Source of the DNA: an uncultured Opitutales bacterium
Lineage (GTDB): Bacteria > Verrucomicrobiota > Verrucomicrobiia > Opitutales > CAYWEO01
Assembly: GCA_964457855.1 (NCBI GenBank)
Contig: CAYWEO010000005.1
Coordinates: forward strand, 487 to 64,486
DNA length: 64,000 nt
Reading direction: 5' to 3'
A program made the position numbers and the translations under genes. Each line of letters starts with the position of its first letter. The stretch's first letter is position 1. The notes below the pieces were generated by a model. It was not told the origin of the DNA and did not search any database. It saw nothing but the letters and a program-made list of their open reading frames with translations. This document shows positions 42,831 to 46,814 of the stretch, in pieces.

Positions 42831-43033
42831 TTTTTTCTCTTGACTTTCGTTTCAGCTTCACAAATTGTTGACCGCATTTACAAATTGTCAGCTTCTGATT
42901 GCGCTGTTCGGAAATGGTCGTTGACAGTTTGTGAAGAGAAAACTAAAAAAACTAAAATTCAACTCAACCTAGGTTCGGATTGCAGATGAACCAAGAAATA
43001 ACATCAAGAACAATATTGCAAGGAAAACACATT
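42831..43033 (+). promoter_or_regulatory. conserved upstream region of the CC-LRR gene trio (copy 1)
   Basis: CTCTTGACTTTCG..CTTCACAAATTGTTGAC..TTTACAAATTGTCAGC..GTTGACAGTTTGTGAAG..., then ACAAGGAAAACACATT-ATG. The same architecture occurs at 43963 and 45403. Confidence 0.5.
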
Positions 43034-43858
43034 ATGAAAATAATATCTAAATTAACAAAGTGCGCGCTACCTGTAGCGCTTTTAACCGCTGGAGTCTGTT
43101 CTGCGCGTTGGTCTATAGATCCAGGTAATACGCAGAAGAATGAGTATCGGCGTCTCATACTAGATGAGGTGTGCAAAAAGGACCTAGCCATGCTTGTGCC
43201 AGCAGCCAAAAAATTTAACGAATTTGGTGTACTGTTGATCAGGCATTTGGATGTTGAAAAGGTTGCCGTAAGTGACCTGTGTGAGCTTGTGAAGGGTCTC
43301 ACAAGCGTACGTCTTATTTTGATAAATAGTTCAAATTTAAAAAGCACTGATTTGGAGTTAATTGCAAAAGCTTGTTCGCCAAAAGTCAGCAAGTTTGCCA
43401 TAAGCAATTGTCCTTTAATCGCAAACAATGGTGTAGAAAGCCTAGCTAAGGCTTTGGGTCAAAATCTGACTTATCTTTGGCTGCTTAAAAGCGGTGTAGG
43501 GCCCAAGGGCATCCTAGGGTTGGTAGAGCATGCAAAAAACTTGCGCGCGTTGGAATTTTATGACTGCAAGAACTTCACAGACAAGGCTGTAGGACATATT
43601 GTTCGTAAATGTCCTAGTCTGCAGTCGATCCACATGGAGGGATGCTCGTTAACAAACAAGTTACCAAATTTCATCGAGGAAAACTTAGATAAAGTACCCT
43701 TATTGCAGTTAGTTTACATGACAAAATGCGGGGTAGACGAAAAAAAGGAAAAAGCGTTGCAACGCATTCTCCTTGTGAGACATTTTAACAACTCCAAGAT
43801 AAAAAGTTCTAGCAATGCGAACTTGCAAAGCGAAAAGGAAATCGAGATTAAAAAATGA
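43034..43858 (+). CDS. secreted cysteine-containing (RNI/FBXL-type) LRR protein, paralog 1
   Basis: Signal peptide MKIISKLTKCALPVALLTAGVCSA|RW. Repeats such as CKNFTDKAVGHIVRKCPSLQSIHMEGCSLTN. Ends ..SEKEIEIKK*. Confidence 0.8.
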   Translation: MKIISKLTKCALPVALLTAGVCSARWSIDPGNTQKNEYRRLILDEVCKKDLAMLVPAAKKFNEFGVLLIRHLDVEKVAVSDLCELVKGLTSVRLILINSSNLKSTDLELIAKACSPKVSKFAISNCPLIANNGVESLAKALGQNLTYLWLLKSGVGPKGILGLVEHAKNLRALEFYDCKNFTDKAVGHIVRKCPSLQSIHMEGCSLTNKLPNFIEENLDKVPLLQLVYMTKCGVDEKKEKALQRILLVRHFNNSKIKSSSNANLQSEKEIEIKK

Positions 43859-43934
43859 GGCCAAAAGACAAGTCGTTATAAAAAGCGCAAAAACCTGGAG
43901 ATTCCGATCGTAAAGACTGGAATCTCGGGGATCG

Positions 43935-43962
43935 GGGAGGGCATTTCGCCCTCTCTTTTTTT
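43935..43962 (+). terminator. intrinsic terminator after LRR paralog 1
   Basis: GGAGGGC-atttc-GCCCTCT followed by CTTTTTTT. A conserved hairpin GAGATTCC..GGAATCTC precedes it. Confidence 0.7.
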
Positions 43963-44169
43963 ATTTTTTCCTCTTGACTTTCGTTTCAGCTTCACAAACT
44001 GTTAACCGCATTTACAAGTTGTCAGCTTTGAGTACGCTGTTCGTGAAATGATAGTTGACAGTTTTTGAAGAACAAACTAGCATTCAGTCTGAGCTTAGGA
44101 CGATCTAAGTGAAAATTGTAAATAAGCTAAGAAACAACACAAATAACAATATTACAAGGAAAACACATT
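43963..44169 (+). promoter_or_regulatory. conserved upstream region (copy 2)
   Basis: CTTCACAAACTGTTAAC..TTTACAAGTTGTCAGC..GTTGACAGTTTTTGAAG. Confidence 0.5.
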
Positions 44170-45297
44170 ATGAAAATACTATCTAAATTAACAAAATGCG
44201 CGCTACCTGTGGCGCTTTTAACCGCGGGGCTTTGCTCGGCGTCTTGGACTGATGACGTCAGAAGGGATTCAATAAATAAGTCCAACCCTGACGAGCTTCT
44301 CATATGGAAGAATTGTAGCTTCGATCAAGCTCTCGAGTTGTATCGATTGACGTATGATAAGCTAGGTAACTACGACATAGGCAATAAAGTGAAGCGGTTG
44401 ATGGTAACTCAGTTAGGTGAGAGCACTGGAGGCTTTGCATTTAATAATGAGGTTCATAAAAGCATGAAAATTGCACAAAAAAAGCTGCCGAAACTGGAGG
44501 AAATTCTTTTTCACGTTTGTCCGTCTTTAACAAGTTTATCCACGTCTTTTGATACTAACGGTGGATGTGATAGCCTACGTTCTATAGTGCTCAATGACTG
44601 TCCGAATATGGACGATAAGATGGCGCTGTACATAACTATGAGTTACGGTGATCAATTAGAGTCGATTTTTGTGAATAAAACAGGAATCACCATGGATGGT
44701 GTATGTTCGATAGGCGACCGGTGTGGCGGGGTGAAAAATGTGTGCATAGGAGGGGGATTGTTGAAAAATGATACTGATTTGGGAGAGATCCTTCATGGAT
44801 TTAAGAACATGGAATGCTTATCGTTAATGGACTGTAGTGCCAAGATAGAGTTCAATGTTGGCGGGAGTCCATACACCAATGTGCGTTTTCTGGCAATTGA
44901 GTCTAGCAGCTTACAAGATAAGGCTGTCATTAACATGTGTAAACTCTTCCCTAACACAGAAGTTCTCACTTTAATCAACTGTCCGATACAAGGCGCTGAT
45001 GTGCAAAAGATCTTGCTAAACTTGCAGTTATTAACAAGTATTTGCTTTGATAACTGCAGCCTTCTCAGAGACGGCACTTTGAGCTATATTGGGAATAACT
45101 ACAAAAATTTTCCAATGCTTAAAGTGATTGGTGTGAAAGGAAAGTCTAGCATTACGAAGGAAGGTGTAGATAAGTTGAAAAAATTGAAGATGTTCGCTGT
45201 TACGTTTGCCCCTTATACTCCTGCCAGCTTTCAAAATAAGGCATCTGGCAACGTGGGCCAGAAAATCGACGAAAAGGAAATCGAGATTAAAAAATGA
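44170..45297 (+). CDS. secreted CC-type LRR protein, paralog 2
   Basis: MKILSKLTKCALPVALLTAGLCSA|SW, then ..CPNMDDKMALYITMSYGDQLESIFVNKTGITMDGV.., ends ..DEKEIEIKK*. Confidence 0.8.
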   Translation: MKILSKLTKCALPVALLTAGLCSASWTDDVRRDSINKSNPDELLIWKNCSFDQALELYRLTYDKLGNYDIGNKVKRLMVTQLGESTGGFAFNNEVHKSMKIAQKKLPKLEEILFHVCPSLTSLSTSFDTNGGCDSLRSIVLNDCPNMDDKMALYITMSYGDQLESIFVNKTGITMDGVCSIGDRCGGVKNVCIGGGLLKNDTDLGEILHGFKNMECLSLMDCSAKIEFNVGGSPYTNVRFLAIESSSLQDKAVINMCKLFPNTEVLTLINCPIQGADVQKILLNLQLLTSICFDNCSLLRDGTLSYIGNNYKNFPMLKVIGVKGKSSITKEGVDKLKKLKMFAVTFAPYTPASFQNKASGNVGQKIDEKEIEIKK

Positions 45298-45372
45298 GGC
45301 CAAAAGGCAAGTCGTTATAAAGAGCGTAAAAACCTGCAGATTCCGATCGTAAAGACTGAAATCTCGTGGGTC

Positions 45373-45402
45373 AGAGAGGGAAAAACGCCCTCTCTTTTTT
45401 TA
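45373..45402 (+). terminator. intrinsic terminator after LRR paralog 2
   Basis: AGAGAGGG-aaaaacg-CCCTCTCT followed by TTTTTT. Confidence 0.7.
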
Positions 45403-45585
45403 TTTTTCCTCTTGACTTATGTTTTGAGTCTACAAATTATCAATCCCGTTTGCAAGTTGTCAGCTTTGAGTACGCTGTTTTATAAATACCAACTGAAAGT
45501 TTTTGAAAAAAGCTGGTATTTCGGACACAGATTGTAAGCAAGCTAAGAAACAACACAAATAACAATATTACGAGGAGAATACATT
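45403..45585 (+). promoter_or_regulatory. conserved upstream region (copy 3, more diverged)
   Basis: CTCTTGACTTATG..TCTACAAATTATCAAT..TTTGCAAGTTGTCAGC.. Confidence 0.4.
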
Positions 45586-46677
45586 ATGAAAATAATATCT
45601 AAATTAACAAAATGCGCGCTACCTGTAGCGCTTTTAACCGCTGGGGCGATATCGGCGTCCTGGTGTGATGATGCCAGAGCTTATACGTCACTTTCTACGA
45701 GCGATCCATTTAAGTGGAACAACACTTCTGATGTTTCTAGCATTGGAAAGGACATTGAGTTGTATAAACTTACGAATAGTGAGCCTACAGTGCAGCAATT
45801 GATCGTGACGGGAAACAATAAAGTTTCGCAGAAAGAATTGGAAAACGTGCAGAAATTGCTGCCAAGTGTGCAGGACATTTCTTTTTTTAATTGTCCAAAG
45901 CTAGGAAGTAAGCATCTTCTTGGATGGAATAACCTGCGTTCTATCATGTTCAATGGGTGTCCAAAGATAGATGATCGTACGGCGGCCTATATAGCCTTTA
46001 AGTACGGGTGGACTTTAGAGTCGATTTTTGTGGATGGAACGAAAATTACAATGGAGGGCCTAAAGTGGATCGCTGAGCATTGCACAAATGTGAAAGACGT
46101 GCACATAGGGAACTTGCTGAAAAATGATGGCGATTTGGAAACGATCCTTAATGCATTTAACAAAATGGAATGCCTATCATTATCTGGCTTAAAGAAGACT
46201 GTGTCATTCAATCTTGACGAGGTTTACCGTAATGTGCATTTCATAAGCCTTGAATCTTGCGATGTAGACGATGACGCTGTTGTTAATATGTGTGCACGCT
46301 TCCCGGATTCACAGGTCATTACTTTCCGAGGCTGTCCGATAACAGACGAGGCTGTAACAACGATCATGCAGGAATTGAACGTGGAGTGCATTTCCTTTGA
46401 TGACTGCAAGAGCATCACTAACAAGGCCTTGAGTAATATTGCTATGAATTTAAAATCCAGCCTTAAGCGAGTCTGTGTGAAAGGGGCTACTCAAATTACA
46501 CAAGAGGCTGCCGCTTCTTTGAAATCAATCAATATTGAATTTATTCCTGCCGACACTAAAATTAACACATCCAGAAGCGTGAACCAGAACATTGAAAATA
46601 GTGACAATGGTAACTTCTCGAATAGTAAAATCGAAAACAAGGAAATCGAAATTAAGAAAAATGATAATAAGAAATAA
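45586..46677 (+). CDS. secreted CC-type LRR protein, paralog 3
   Basis: MKIISKLTKCALPVALLTAGAISA|SW, then ..CPKIDDRTAAYIAFKYGWTLESIFVDGTKITMEGL.., ends ..ENKEIEIKKNDNKK*. Confidence 0.8.
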   Translation: MKIISKLTKCALPVALLTAGAISASWCDDARAYTSLSTSDPFKWNNTSDVSSIGKDIELYKLTNSEPTVQQLIVTGNNKVSQKELENVQKLLPSVQDISFFNCPKLGSKHLLGWNNLRSIMFNGCPKIDDRTAAYIAFKYGWTLESIFVDGTKITMEGLKWIAEHCTNVKDVHIGNLLKNDGDLETILNAFNKMECLSLSGLKKTVSFNLDEVYRNVHFISLESCDVDDDAVVNMCARFPDSQVITFRGCPITDEAVTTIMQELNVECISFDDCKSITNKALSNIAMNLKSSLKRVCVKGATQITQEAAASLKSINIEFIPADTKINTSRSVNQNIENSDNGNFSNSKIENKEIEIKKNDNKK

Positions 46678-46814
46678 GGCGTCCTAAATGGCGAAAAACC
46701 TGCGGATTCCGATCGCAAAGACTGGAATCTCGGGGATCAGAGGGGGCATTTTGCCTTCTCTTGTCGTTGTTAATGCGCCTCGTGTAAAAGCTACCCCCCA
46801 AAGAAAACAACTCA

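Follow-up and report, generated by a model that had tools for sequence, protein, structure and literature searches.

A tandem array of three related genes encoding leucine-rich repeat (LRR) proteins, here named g1, g2 and g3, is located in a 64,000-nucleotide stretch of DNA (the window; positions 487 to 64,486 of contig CAYWEO010000005.1) from an uncultured Opitutales bacterium of the Verrucomicrobiota. The array lies within positions 42837–46765 of the window and consists of three units on the + strand, each containing one open reading frame (ORF) with its own flanking sequences. It is a real and well delimited feature, encoding an orphan family of bacterial proteins with LRRs of the cysteine-containing (CC) type. 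The features of the array are:

42837–43033 (+), 5′ region of unit 1: conserved upstream block (42837–42947), variable spacer, and A-rich leader with an AAGGAA ribosome-binding site (43020–43025) 9 nt ahead of the ATG
43034–43858 (+), g1, 274 aa: signal peptide MKIISKLTKCALPVALLTAGVCSA (43034–43105), linker (residues 25–76; predicted local distance difference test score, pLDDT, below 50), six CC-type LRRs (residues ~91–248), and disordered tail with the last residues EKEIEIKK
43894–43970 (+), 3′ end of unit 1: hairpin 1 (43894–43930), GC-rich terminator hairpin (43934–43956) and T-run (43957–43970)
43971–44169 (+), 5′ region of unit 2: conserved upstream block, variable spacer, and leader with ribosome-binding site
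44055–44083 (+), second promoter-like site of unit 2: TTGACA-17-TAGCAT
44170–45297 (+), g2, 375 aa: signal peptide, ~80-aa linker, ~10 CC-type LRRs, and tail with the last residues EKEIEIKK
45332–45408 (+), 3′ end of unit 2: hairpin 1 (45332–45371), terminator hairpin (45373–45395) and T-run
45409–45585 (+), 5′ region of unit 3: more diverged upstream block with TTGACT-17-AATTAT at 45412–45440, shorter spacer, and leader with a GAGGAG ribosome-binding site
45586–46677 (+), g3, 363 aa: signal peptide, disordered linker, 11 beta-strand LRR turns (residues 68–320), and disordered N/S/K-rich tail with KEIEIKK 5 residues ahead of the stop
46699–46765 (+), 3′ end of unit 3: hairpin 1 (46699–46734), terminator-like hairpin (46739–46761) and degraded T-run

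Alignments of the three units give a common order of elements, in which the preceding terminator and its T-run are followed by CTCTTGACTT, a block of ~110 nt, a spacer, a leader and the gene. From the gene to the 3′ end the order is signal peptide, LRR body, KEIEIKK codons, hairpin 1, and GC-rich hairpin with T-run. The sequence CTCTTGACTT is invariant and present at the start of each unit, and in unit 2 it directly adjoins the T-run of unit 1. The spacer is variable, with a length of ~10–30 nt and insertions and deletions (28–30 compared positions in the alignment columns); the leader is conserved, A-rich and ~58 nt long, and aligns as AAGGAAAACACATT-ATG with AAGGAA 9 nt upstream of the ATG.

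Three-copy direct-repeat families of 116–148 nt, at spacings of 1134–1439 nt, span the upstream block, the leader with the signal peptide, and the 3′ end. Together with the alignments, a terminator scan and RNA folds, they bear out the preliminary description of this DNA, which had proposed a tandem triplication with a conserved 5′ region and a double-hairpin 3′ end in each copy. The lengths that it gave are correct for g2 and g3 (375 and 363 aa), whereas its 275 aa for g1 counts the stop codon. The hairpin 1 pattern GATTCCGATCGNAAAGACTGRAATC and a 41-nt signal-peptide DNA pattern each occur exactly three times in the 64 kb and not at all in 100 shuffles. The upstream motif CTCTTGACTTNNGTTT also has three matches, each marking a unit start; on its own it is only weakly above chance, three matches being reached in 6 of 100 shuffles.

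The terminator scan identified a hairpin with T-run at 43934–43956 and 45373–45395, and these intrinsic terminators of units 1 and 2 have stems of 8–9 bp followed by TTTTTTTATTT. In unit 3 (46739–46761) the hairpin is kept and the T-run is interrupted (TGTCGTTGTT) and thus degraded. RNA folding predicts the double hairpin in all three units (z-scores −3.6, −2.0 and −3.0). Rfam searches of 42600–47100 gave only sub-threshold matches at chance level, including SorX (21.9 bits, cutoff 46.6) and Bp1_162 (24.3 bits, cutoff 50).

The upstream block had been described as a conserved promoter region, of which the conservation stands and the promoter role is a suggestion drawn from the TTGACT box. Transcription could start from TTGACT-17-AATTGT/AATTAT at the start of the block, or from TTGACA-17-TAGCAT ~110 nt upstream of the ATG. 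The block in unit 1 also contains three ACAANTTGT near-palindromes (42860–42868, 42880–42888 and 42924–42932) with equivalents in units 2 and 3, and a 24-nt inverted repeat (42845–42868 and 42924–42947) is shared by units 1 and 2 and not maintained in unit 3. The inverted repeat was considered as an RNA structure in the 5′ untranslated region (UTR) and rejected, as the three-copy alignment shows that the unit 3 arms are not complementary and that there are no compensatory changes. The near-palindromes and the inverted repeat are better regarded as candidate operator sites for a dimeric regulator.

The proteins begin with a putative signal peptide. By pattern inspection this contains the n-region MKIISKLTK with three lysines, the h-region CALPVALLTAGVC (best 12-residue hydrophobic window of 2.05–2.08, Kyte-Doolittle) and the cleavage region (V/L/A)(C/I)SA↓(R/S)W. 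The charged n-region, hydrophobic h-region and small residues at −3 and −1 are those of a Sec substrate of signal peptidase I, and g1–g3 are predicted to be exported by Sec and cleaved after (C/I)-S-A. A lipoprotein reading was rejected because there is no lipobox ([LVI][ASTVI][GAS]C): g1 has AG-V-C and g2 has AG-L-C, with V or L at −1, and g3 has AGAIS without a cysteine.

Searches against family databases reveal little about the bodies of the three proteins. Nothing in Pfam reaches the gathering threshold; the best match is that of g1 to LRR_6 (PF13516; 12.6 bits, cutoff 23.4), while g2 has no match and g3 has an unrelated sub-threshold match to DUF7071 (11.2 bits, cutoff 27). NCBIfam gives no significant match to any of the three. 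However, when phmmer is used against all PDB sequences the only real matches are FBXL2, FBXL17, COI1 and TIR1, which are eukaryotic SCF (Skp1–Cullin–F-box) receptors of the cysteine-containing LRR class. The g1 matches are FBXL2 (2e-12), FBXL17 (4e-11) and COI1 (1e-5), g2 matches FBXL2 (E=1e-4), and g3 matches FBXL17 (3e-8) and FBXL2 (1e-6).

AlphaFold models, with the three paralogs as the sole input alignment, are alpha/beta LRR horseshoes for g1 and g3 with helices on the convex side and strands spaced 22–28 residues apart across the models. The g3 horseshoe (residues ~70–320) has 11 strands at 22–27-residue spacing and a block-mean pLDDT of ~70–93 (>90 for residues 121–240), and that of g1 (residues ~80–230) has 6 strands and a block-mean pLDDT of ~70–90 (residues 81–220). 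The N-terminal linkers and C-terminal tails are mostly below 50 and are disordered or unmodelled. In Foldseek comparisons with the PDB, g3 matches FBXL2 and FBXL17 first, followed by ribonuclease inhibitor, COI1, NLRP3 and a Legionella LRR protein, and the top matches of g1 are KDM2A, NLRP1, FBXL17 and ribonuclease inhibitor; SKP2 is also among the best matches of the models. The repeats contain CxxITD/CPxI motifs, and a strict CC core with cysteine is present twice in g1 and three times in each of g2 and g3 (e.g. LRSIMFNGCPKID, VECISFDDCKSIT, LRALEFYDCKNFTD), the remaining repeats being degenerate. The updated CC-LRR consensus, LxxLxLxxC with an ITD-like motif, admits T or N at the cysteine position (PMC2244805), and the repeat length and horseshoe, the consensus, and the closest relatives in sequence and fold all fit membership of this class. 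The assignment to the CC/FBXL subtype made in the preliminary description is thus upheld by both the phmmer matches (FBXL2, FBXL17, COI1, TIR1) and the Foldseek matches (FBXL2, FBXL17).

The proteins share with eukaryotic FBXL2, FBXL17, SKP2 and TIR1/COI1 the 22–28-residue repeats, the LxxLxLxxC plus I/T/D motif and the convex-side helix, and as binding domains their LRRs would work in the way of those of FBXL proteins, but they differ in several respects. Many of their repeats have lost the cysteine and the Pfam LRR_6 threshold is not reached, they have a predicted bacterial Sec signal peptide and a K/E-rich tail, and they have no F-box and hence no means of SKP1/SCF docking. The F-box, which the first reading of this DNA had also failed to find, is absent from g1–g3 by Pfam at E≤1. 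A home-made hidden Markov model (HMM) built from seven textbook F-boxes gives no match to them even at E≤100, although as a control it recovers (E<0.001) about 10 of 56 related LRR proteins, 11 of which have a Pfam F-box. The FBXL alignments to g1–g3 cover the LRRs only and begin past the F-box. The bodies are therefore real CC/FBXL-type LRR solenoids that lack an F-box. Between g2 and g3 the LRR scaffold positions are 66% identical, compared with 42% for the exposed beta-face (p=0.027) and 44% for the whole LRR region, and the LRR fold is under purifying selection.

The ends of the units are conserved and the bodies diverged, as first described. Amino-acid identity of the bodies is 33–47% (g2–g3 47%; g1 versus g2 or g3 33–37%), whereas the non-coding blocks are 66–92% identical between units. 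For the g2–g3 bodies the synonymous divergence (dS) is 0.85 and the nonsynonymous divergence (dN) is 0.49, a dN/dS of 0.58, and for g1 versus g2 or g3 dS is >2 or saturated; the 26 signal-peptide codons have a dS of only 0.27–0.47. The nearest pair also changes from block to block. It is g1–g2 in the upstream block (87%), g2–g3 in the leader (88%) and body, and g1–g2 again in the 3′ UTR with hairpin 1 (92%), and the signal peptides are star-like (87–90%). A junction module of ~0.4 kb is thereby delimited; it begins with the last codons, takes in hairpin 1, the terminator, the TTGACT block and the leader, and closes with the signal peptide, and it is conserved far above the LRR bodies. Because the non-coding sequences are conserved far beyond the adjacent silent sites, which in the bodies approach or reach saturation, and the nearest pairs are discordant, we infer that recombination or gene conversion has acted on this module. 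The flanks are probably also conserved by selection on the signals for expression and export.

A possible variant of the array is present in JGI contig Ga0485169_0147571 (sample 3300045131; compared with window 43146–46332). Over 713 nt the contig has no mismatch to g1. Inside a 41-nt block around the stop codon, which is identical in both junctions, it changes over to the g2/g3-type spacer (100% identical), and it then runs on into a g3 allele; g2 is absent. The contig could represent a two-gene haplotype. Its g3 allele has 22 nucleotide differences, with 16 nonsynonymous and 2 synonymous in codons 20–85 and 1 nonsynonymous and 2 synonymous in codons 86–249, and has Cys22 restored (AGVCSA). 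The pattern looks like a swapped or unconstrained linker attached to a conserved LRR domain. Positive selection on g3 between the strains is not indicated, since the excess of nonsynonymous changes falls in the disordered linker and does not significantly exceed what neutrality predicts.

Database searches return no full-length relatives. A word-indexed search of 5.8 billion protein clusters gave self matches, near-identical fragments and the paralogs from the window, and otherwise weak matches to eukaryotic F-box/LRR proteins (~1e-5). A HMMER profile search of 1.84 billion representatives gave 3332 matches at E≤1e-3; among the best 150 of these, end-to-end alignment is confined to the three self clusters, and the non-self matches involve only the repeat region of long multi-repeat proteins, with the signal peptide and tail matched in none. 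With only self matches over the full length among ~15 billion proteins, g1–g3 are by these comparisons an orphan family. Of the 20 best matches, those with a name come from Allofrancisella, a Planctomycetia metagenome-assembled genome (MAG), two amoebae (Balamuthia and Clydonella), the alga Mesostigma and the protist Mantamonas. As updated, the CC-LRR subfamily is found in animals, plants and protists as well as in bacteria such as Parachlamydia, Gemmata and Legionella, and its bacterial members are free-living as well as symbiotic, with members of the Planctomycetes–Verrucomicrobia–Chlamydiae (PVC) group among them (PMC2244805). Given this published spread and the mixture of protists and bacteria among the repeat-level matches, the eukaryotic affinity claimed earlier stands for the repeat type, which the FBXL matches make a fair description, but a eukaryotic origin is not demonstrated.

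Scanning of genome contigs with the family alignment gave 599 pattern matches and no relatives, and scanning of metagenome contigs with both the family alignment and the 26-nt signal-peptide DNA gave nothing, from which it follows that the source genome and the JGI contig are outside the scanned collections. The g2 DNA is present in identical form in Logan assemblies SRR21799884 and SRR21799886, in contigs that both end inside the conserved flanks, as expected for assembly across repeats. NCBI, JGI and two Logan assemblies have thus each yielded sequences of the array independently. Neither these two accessions nor JGI sample 3300045131 turned up in a literature search.

Genes for a ClpX-like AAA protein and transketolase (tkt) are upstream of the array, and exbB-exbD-tonB, lptC-lptA-lptB and hprK are downstream; elsewhere in the window housekeeping genes are interspersed with ORFs without a Pfam match. 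An insertion site is not demonstrable, because a transketolase scan returned only distant loci (the best in a Puniceicoccales MAG, 56% identity) and the loci fetched contain neither the tkt-exbB adjacency nor LRR genes. PyrG is 70% identical to that of Verrucomicrobia bacterium GWC2_42_7, ~68% to those of Opitutales/Coraliomargaritaceae, and 97% to that encoded on a JGI contig; with the transketolase identity this places the host as a divergent Opitutia (Verrucomicrobiota) bacterium. The Opitutia include symbionts of protists and animals (PMC7679464, PMC8204192, PMC5698493), but nothing observed here places the present lineage among them. No secretion-system or host-association genes were found in the 64-kb window, and PADLOC found nothing.

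The array differs in composition from its surroundings. GC content is 0.40–0.41 in g1–g3 (0.43–0.46 at third codon positions, GC3), ~0.51 in the direct neighbours (GC3 0.51–0.66), and on average 0.47 in the other genes. Gene GC in the window is bimodal, with housekeeping genes at ~0.45–0.54 and a low-GC class at 0.38–0.42; 13 of the 44 genes are low-GC (<0.425), and nearly all of these are without a Pfam match. A hydrophobic N-terminus is present in 10 of the 13 and in 8 of the 31 others (p=0.003), and the last 30 residues are K/E/N-rich in 6 of the 13 and in none of the 31 (p=0.0002). The low-GC class looks like a large accessory secretome, as judged from these sequence properties.

The tail of g1–g3 recurs in this class. 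A six-frame translation of the window contains the pattern KE[IV]EI[KN]K six times, whereas 200 shuffles contain none, and in all cases it lies 0–26 residues from the C-terminus of low-GC genes of the signal-peptide type. Besides g1, g2 and g3, the carriers are two members of a second tandem family of low-GC secreted orphans, whose genes and shared modules are:

1330–1427, module copy
1428–2915 (+), 495-aa ORF with one copy of the tail motif (..NNEKEIEIKKQPNN..)
2930–3043, module copy
3044–4501 (+), ORF of the same family
31066–32076 (−), ORF of the same family
32190–32077 (−), module copy
32206–34050 (−), 614-aa ORF with two copies of the tail motif

The module of this second family consists of a terminator hairpin (CAGCAGTCGCGAGATTGCTG) with T-run, a TTGACA box, a leader and a signal peptide. 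The ORFs at 1428, 3044 and 32206 have similar bodies and that at 31066 matches over the signal peptide only; the signal peptide MRTKLFKQTGIFCLALATALSAFG↓M is common to the ORFs at 1428, 3044 and 31066, and the N-terminus of the ORF at 32206 is different. All four members have a K/E-rich tail and two of the four have the KEIEIKK-type motif. The two carriers (ORFs 1428 and 32206) have neither body similarity nor common DNA flanks with the LRR units, and their motif codons differ from those of g1–g3 by synonymous changes only, which indicates conservation at the peptide level. As the motif is common to unrelated secreted accessory proteins, the EIEIKK end noted in the preliminary description is more than a relic of the triplication; and because unrelated families share both gene design and tail motif, the tail probably has a function in sorting, anchoring or targeting. 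A further low-GC ORF (57038–57991, −; 317 aa) has weak SDS22-like/LRR_4 repeats, and in its signal peptide, MIKIGSNLTKCALVAALTLSAGLGSTYG↓M, the g1–g3 type is combined with the 'FGM' type of other secreted orphan genes.

On balance the locus is probably a lineage-specific tandem array of three single-gene units that encode Sec-exported, F-box-less CC-LRR binding proteins and that recombine through their junction module. The array would have arisen by unequal crossing-over on this module, where recombination could continue to grow, shrink and homogenise it; the modules would be kept alike by gene conversion and by selection on the signals for expression and export, and relaxed or diversifying selection would let the bodies diverge. 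Each unit would be transcribed separately from its conserved block, and the products, exported by Sec and cleaved after SA, would bind proteins outside the cytoplasm, as adhesins, decoys or inhibitors, as part of the larger low-GC accessory secretome of this genome. They would most plausibly bind proteins belonging to a different organism, for instance a protist host, a grazer or a competitor. The design of the genes is unusually clear, in that a self-contained terminator-promoter-leader-signal-peptide module appears to recombine while the binding domain diverges.

Sec-exported bacterial LRR adhesins are well known in the Listeria internalins, the Leptospira LRR lipoproteins and the BspA/TpLRR proteins. 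These have the same combination of signal peptide and LRR binding domain and bind host proteins extracellularly; however, the repeats of the internalins, Leptospira proteins and BspA are short bacterial, SDS22-like or TpLRR repeats and are accompanied by anchors (LPXTG or lipobox), whereas g1–g3 are of the CC class and have neither anchor. Work on bacterial CC-type LRR proteins has until now dealt with F-box-bearing type III/IV effectors, from pathogens and from symbionts of amoebae, and the present locus would be a Sec-exported version in the Verrucomicrobiota that lacks the F-box.

Several observations weigh against this account. Export is predicted from the pattern of the signal peptides and the promoter role of the upstream block from its conserved, consensus-like TTGACT box. 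Nothing among the genes of the 64-kb window is indicative of host association or of a route across the outer membrane, and the proteins may stay in the periplasm. There is no hypervariable binding face between g2 and g3, the exposed beta-face being 42% identical against a domain average of 44%, and therefore no positive signal of an arms race. The K/E-rich tails could in part reflect A-rich, low-GC drift instead of function, and the JGI contig could be an assembly chimera across the repeat.

A more speculative extension assigns sorting, anchoring or targeting to the tail and derives the ligands from a eukaryotic partner. In its full form, the KEIEIKK tail and the family-specific signal peptides would constitute an undescribed two-step code for export, anchoring or host targeting of the low-GC secretome toward such a partner, used by both the CC-LRR triplet and the MRTKLFKQ-signal family (1428–4501 and 31066–34050); this we regard as unlikely. 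If the tail is a sorting or targeting signal it offers a handle on the export of a whole accessory class in this poorly known lineage and possibly on an unrecognised host association, and if not, the array is one more lineage-specific expansion of repeat proteins.

Two other explanations retain a small share of the probability. The first is that g1–g3 are periplasmic inhibitors or immunity proteins, using ribonuclease-inhibitor-like horseshoes against nucleases, lysozymes, or contact-dependent or type VI secretion effectors, with the paralogs directed to different toxins. A Sec signal is consistent with a periplasmic location, the top structural matches include ribonuclease inhibitor and its relatives, the g2–g3 dN/dS of 0.58 is that of relaxed or diversifying evolution, and diverged arrays of immunity paralogs are generally known to be common in bacteria (polymorphic toxin immunity is reviewed in PMC3482391). 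However, no toxin or conflict-system gene adjoins the array, whose neighbours are tkt and exbB-exbD-tonB-lptCAB, and PADLOC is empty; moreover, a long disordered linker and a charged tail common to unrelated secreted families are untypical of immunity proteins. We regard this role as rather doubtful.

The second, for which the chances are similarly slim, is a surface-exposed family of variable antigens in which the main use of the conserved 5′ and 3′ modules would be to recombine, so that LRR bodies are swapped or deleted. Genes with a conserved promoter and signal peptide and variable bodies are known in the Mycoplasma vlp/vsp and Helicobacter bab/sab paralogs and the phytoplasma SVM-signal effectors. 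By analogy with vlp/vsp, bab and SVM, the promoter, leader and signal peptide of g1–g3 are conserved around divergent mature regions, to which g1–g3 add a conserved 3′ end; as in those families, the flanks seem to act as recombination substrates and copy number may differ between strains. The mosaic flanks with discordant nearest pairs, the recombinant g1–g3 haplotype with its crossover inside an identical block, the clustering of the g3 strain differences in codons 20–85 (16 nonsynonymous versus 2 synonymous) and the similar terminator-promoter-leader-signal-peptide design of the second family all fit. But folds and anchors differ, the Mycoplasma proteins being lipoproteins and those of Helicobacter beta-barrels, and g1–g3 have no membrane anchor, lipobox or beta-barrel; phase or antigenic variation is not demonstrated for them, nor is there a homopolymer tract, an invertible element or another device for phase variation. 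Just three copies and one variant haplotype were observed, and the nonsynonymous excess is in a disordered linker and not significantly above neutral.

The preliminary description had linked this repeat subtype to effectors of intracellular bacteria, and in its strongest form an effector reading would make g1–g3 translocated mimics of F-box/LRR substrate receptors that hijack host ubiquitination, in the manner of Ralstonia GALA/RipG, the Legionella F-box proteins and the F-box/LRR expansions of Parachlamydiaceae. The closest solved relatives are indeed SCF substrate receptors, 11 of the 56 best repeat-level relatives have an F-box, tandem arrays of such genes are known in Parachlamydiaceae (PMC4209131), and the GC content of the array is below that of the neighbouring genes. 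There are further likenesses to GALA/RipG, the Legionella F-box/LRR proteins and the NEX/PEX proteins of Parachlamydiaceae, which are CC-type LRR proteins of bacteria including PVC relatives, have undergone lineage-specific tandem expansion with divergence of the birth-and-death style, and for which a horizontal origin from eukaryotes has been proposed (PMC2244805, PMC4209131). Those proteins, however, carry an F-box, BTB or U-box and are type III/IV substrates without Sec signal peptides, whereas g1–g3 combine signal peptide, LRR and charged tail, and no type III/IV system is present in the 64-kb window. Known type III and type IV effectors are not delivered by way of a cleavable Sec signal peptide, the F-box is absent by both Pfam and the control-validated HMM, and the FBXL alignments are confined to the LRRs. 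Mimicry of ubiquitin ligases is hard to reconcile with the predicted Sec export and the lack of an F-box, and without the SKP1-binding F-box the proteins would be unable to act as mimics of SCF ubiquitin ligases. With no secretion-system or host-association genes in the window, and with CC-LRRs occurring also in free-living bacteria, an effector role as first described is not supported, and we consider its ubiquitin-hijacking form very improbable.

An explanation by decay or loss of function of the duplicates, or by faulty assembly, is almost certainly wrong: the degraded T-run and weaker second promoter-like site of unit 3 and the empty Pfam and NCBIfam searches are outweighed by three intact ORFs, a confidently modelled g3 LRR domain (pLDDT >90 at residues 121–240 and ~70–90 elsewhere in the domain), scaffold positions conserved above exposed ones (66% versus 42%, p=0.027), and the independent recovery in NCBI, JGI and two Logan assemblies.

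Three additional features of the window are of a different kind. Between the array and exbB there are two long, near-perfect hairpins (46815–46857 and 46881–46920) with 20-nt arms of 90–95% complementarity and a combined fold of −72 kcal/mol (z-score −9.4). No T-run follows either, and they are candidates for a repetitive extragenic palindromic (REP)-like element or a transcriptional insulator; a 179-aa ORF (46688–47227) that overlaps them is probably spurious. A 970-aa ORF at 52579–55491 (−) has normal GC, an N-terminal hydrophobic segment and no Pfam match at E≤0.001, and may encode a large envelope protein. Towards the left end of the window (8344–12730, +) genes for a UVR-motif protein, an ATP:guanido phosphotransferase and a ClpC-like double-AAA protein form an mcsA-mcsB-clpC-like group of three in this Verrucomicrobiota genome, an arrangement best known from Firmicutes.

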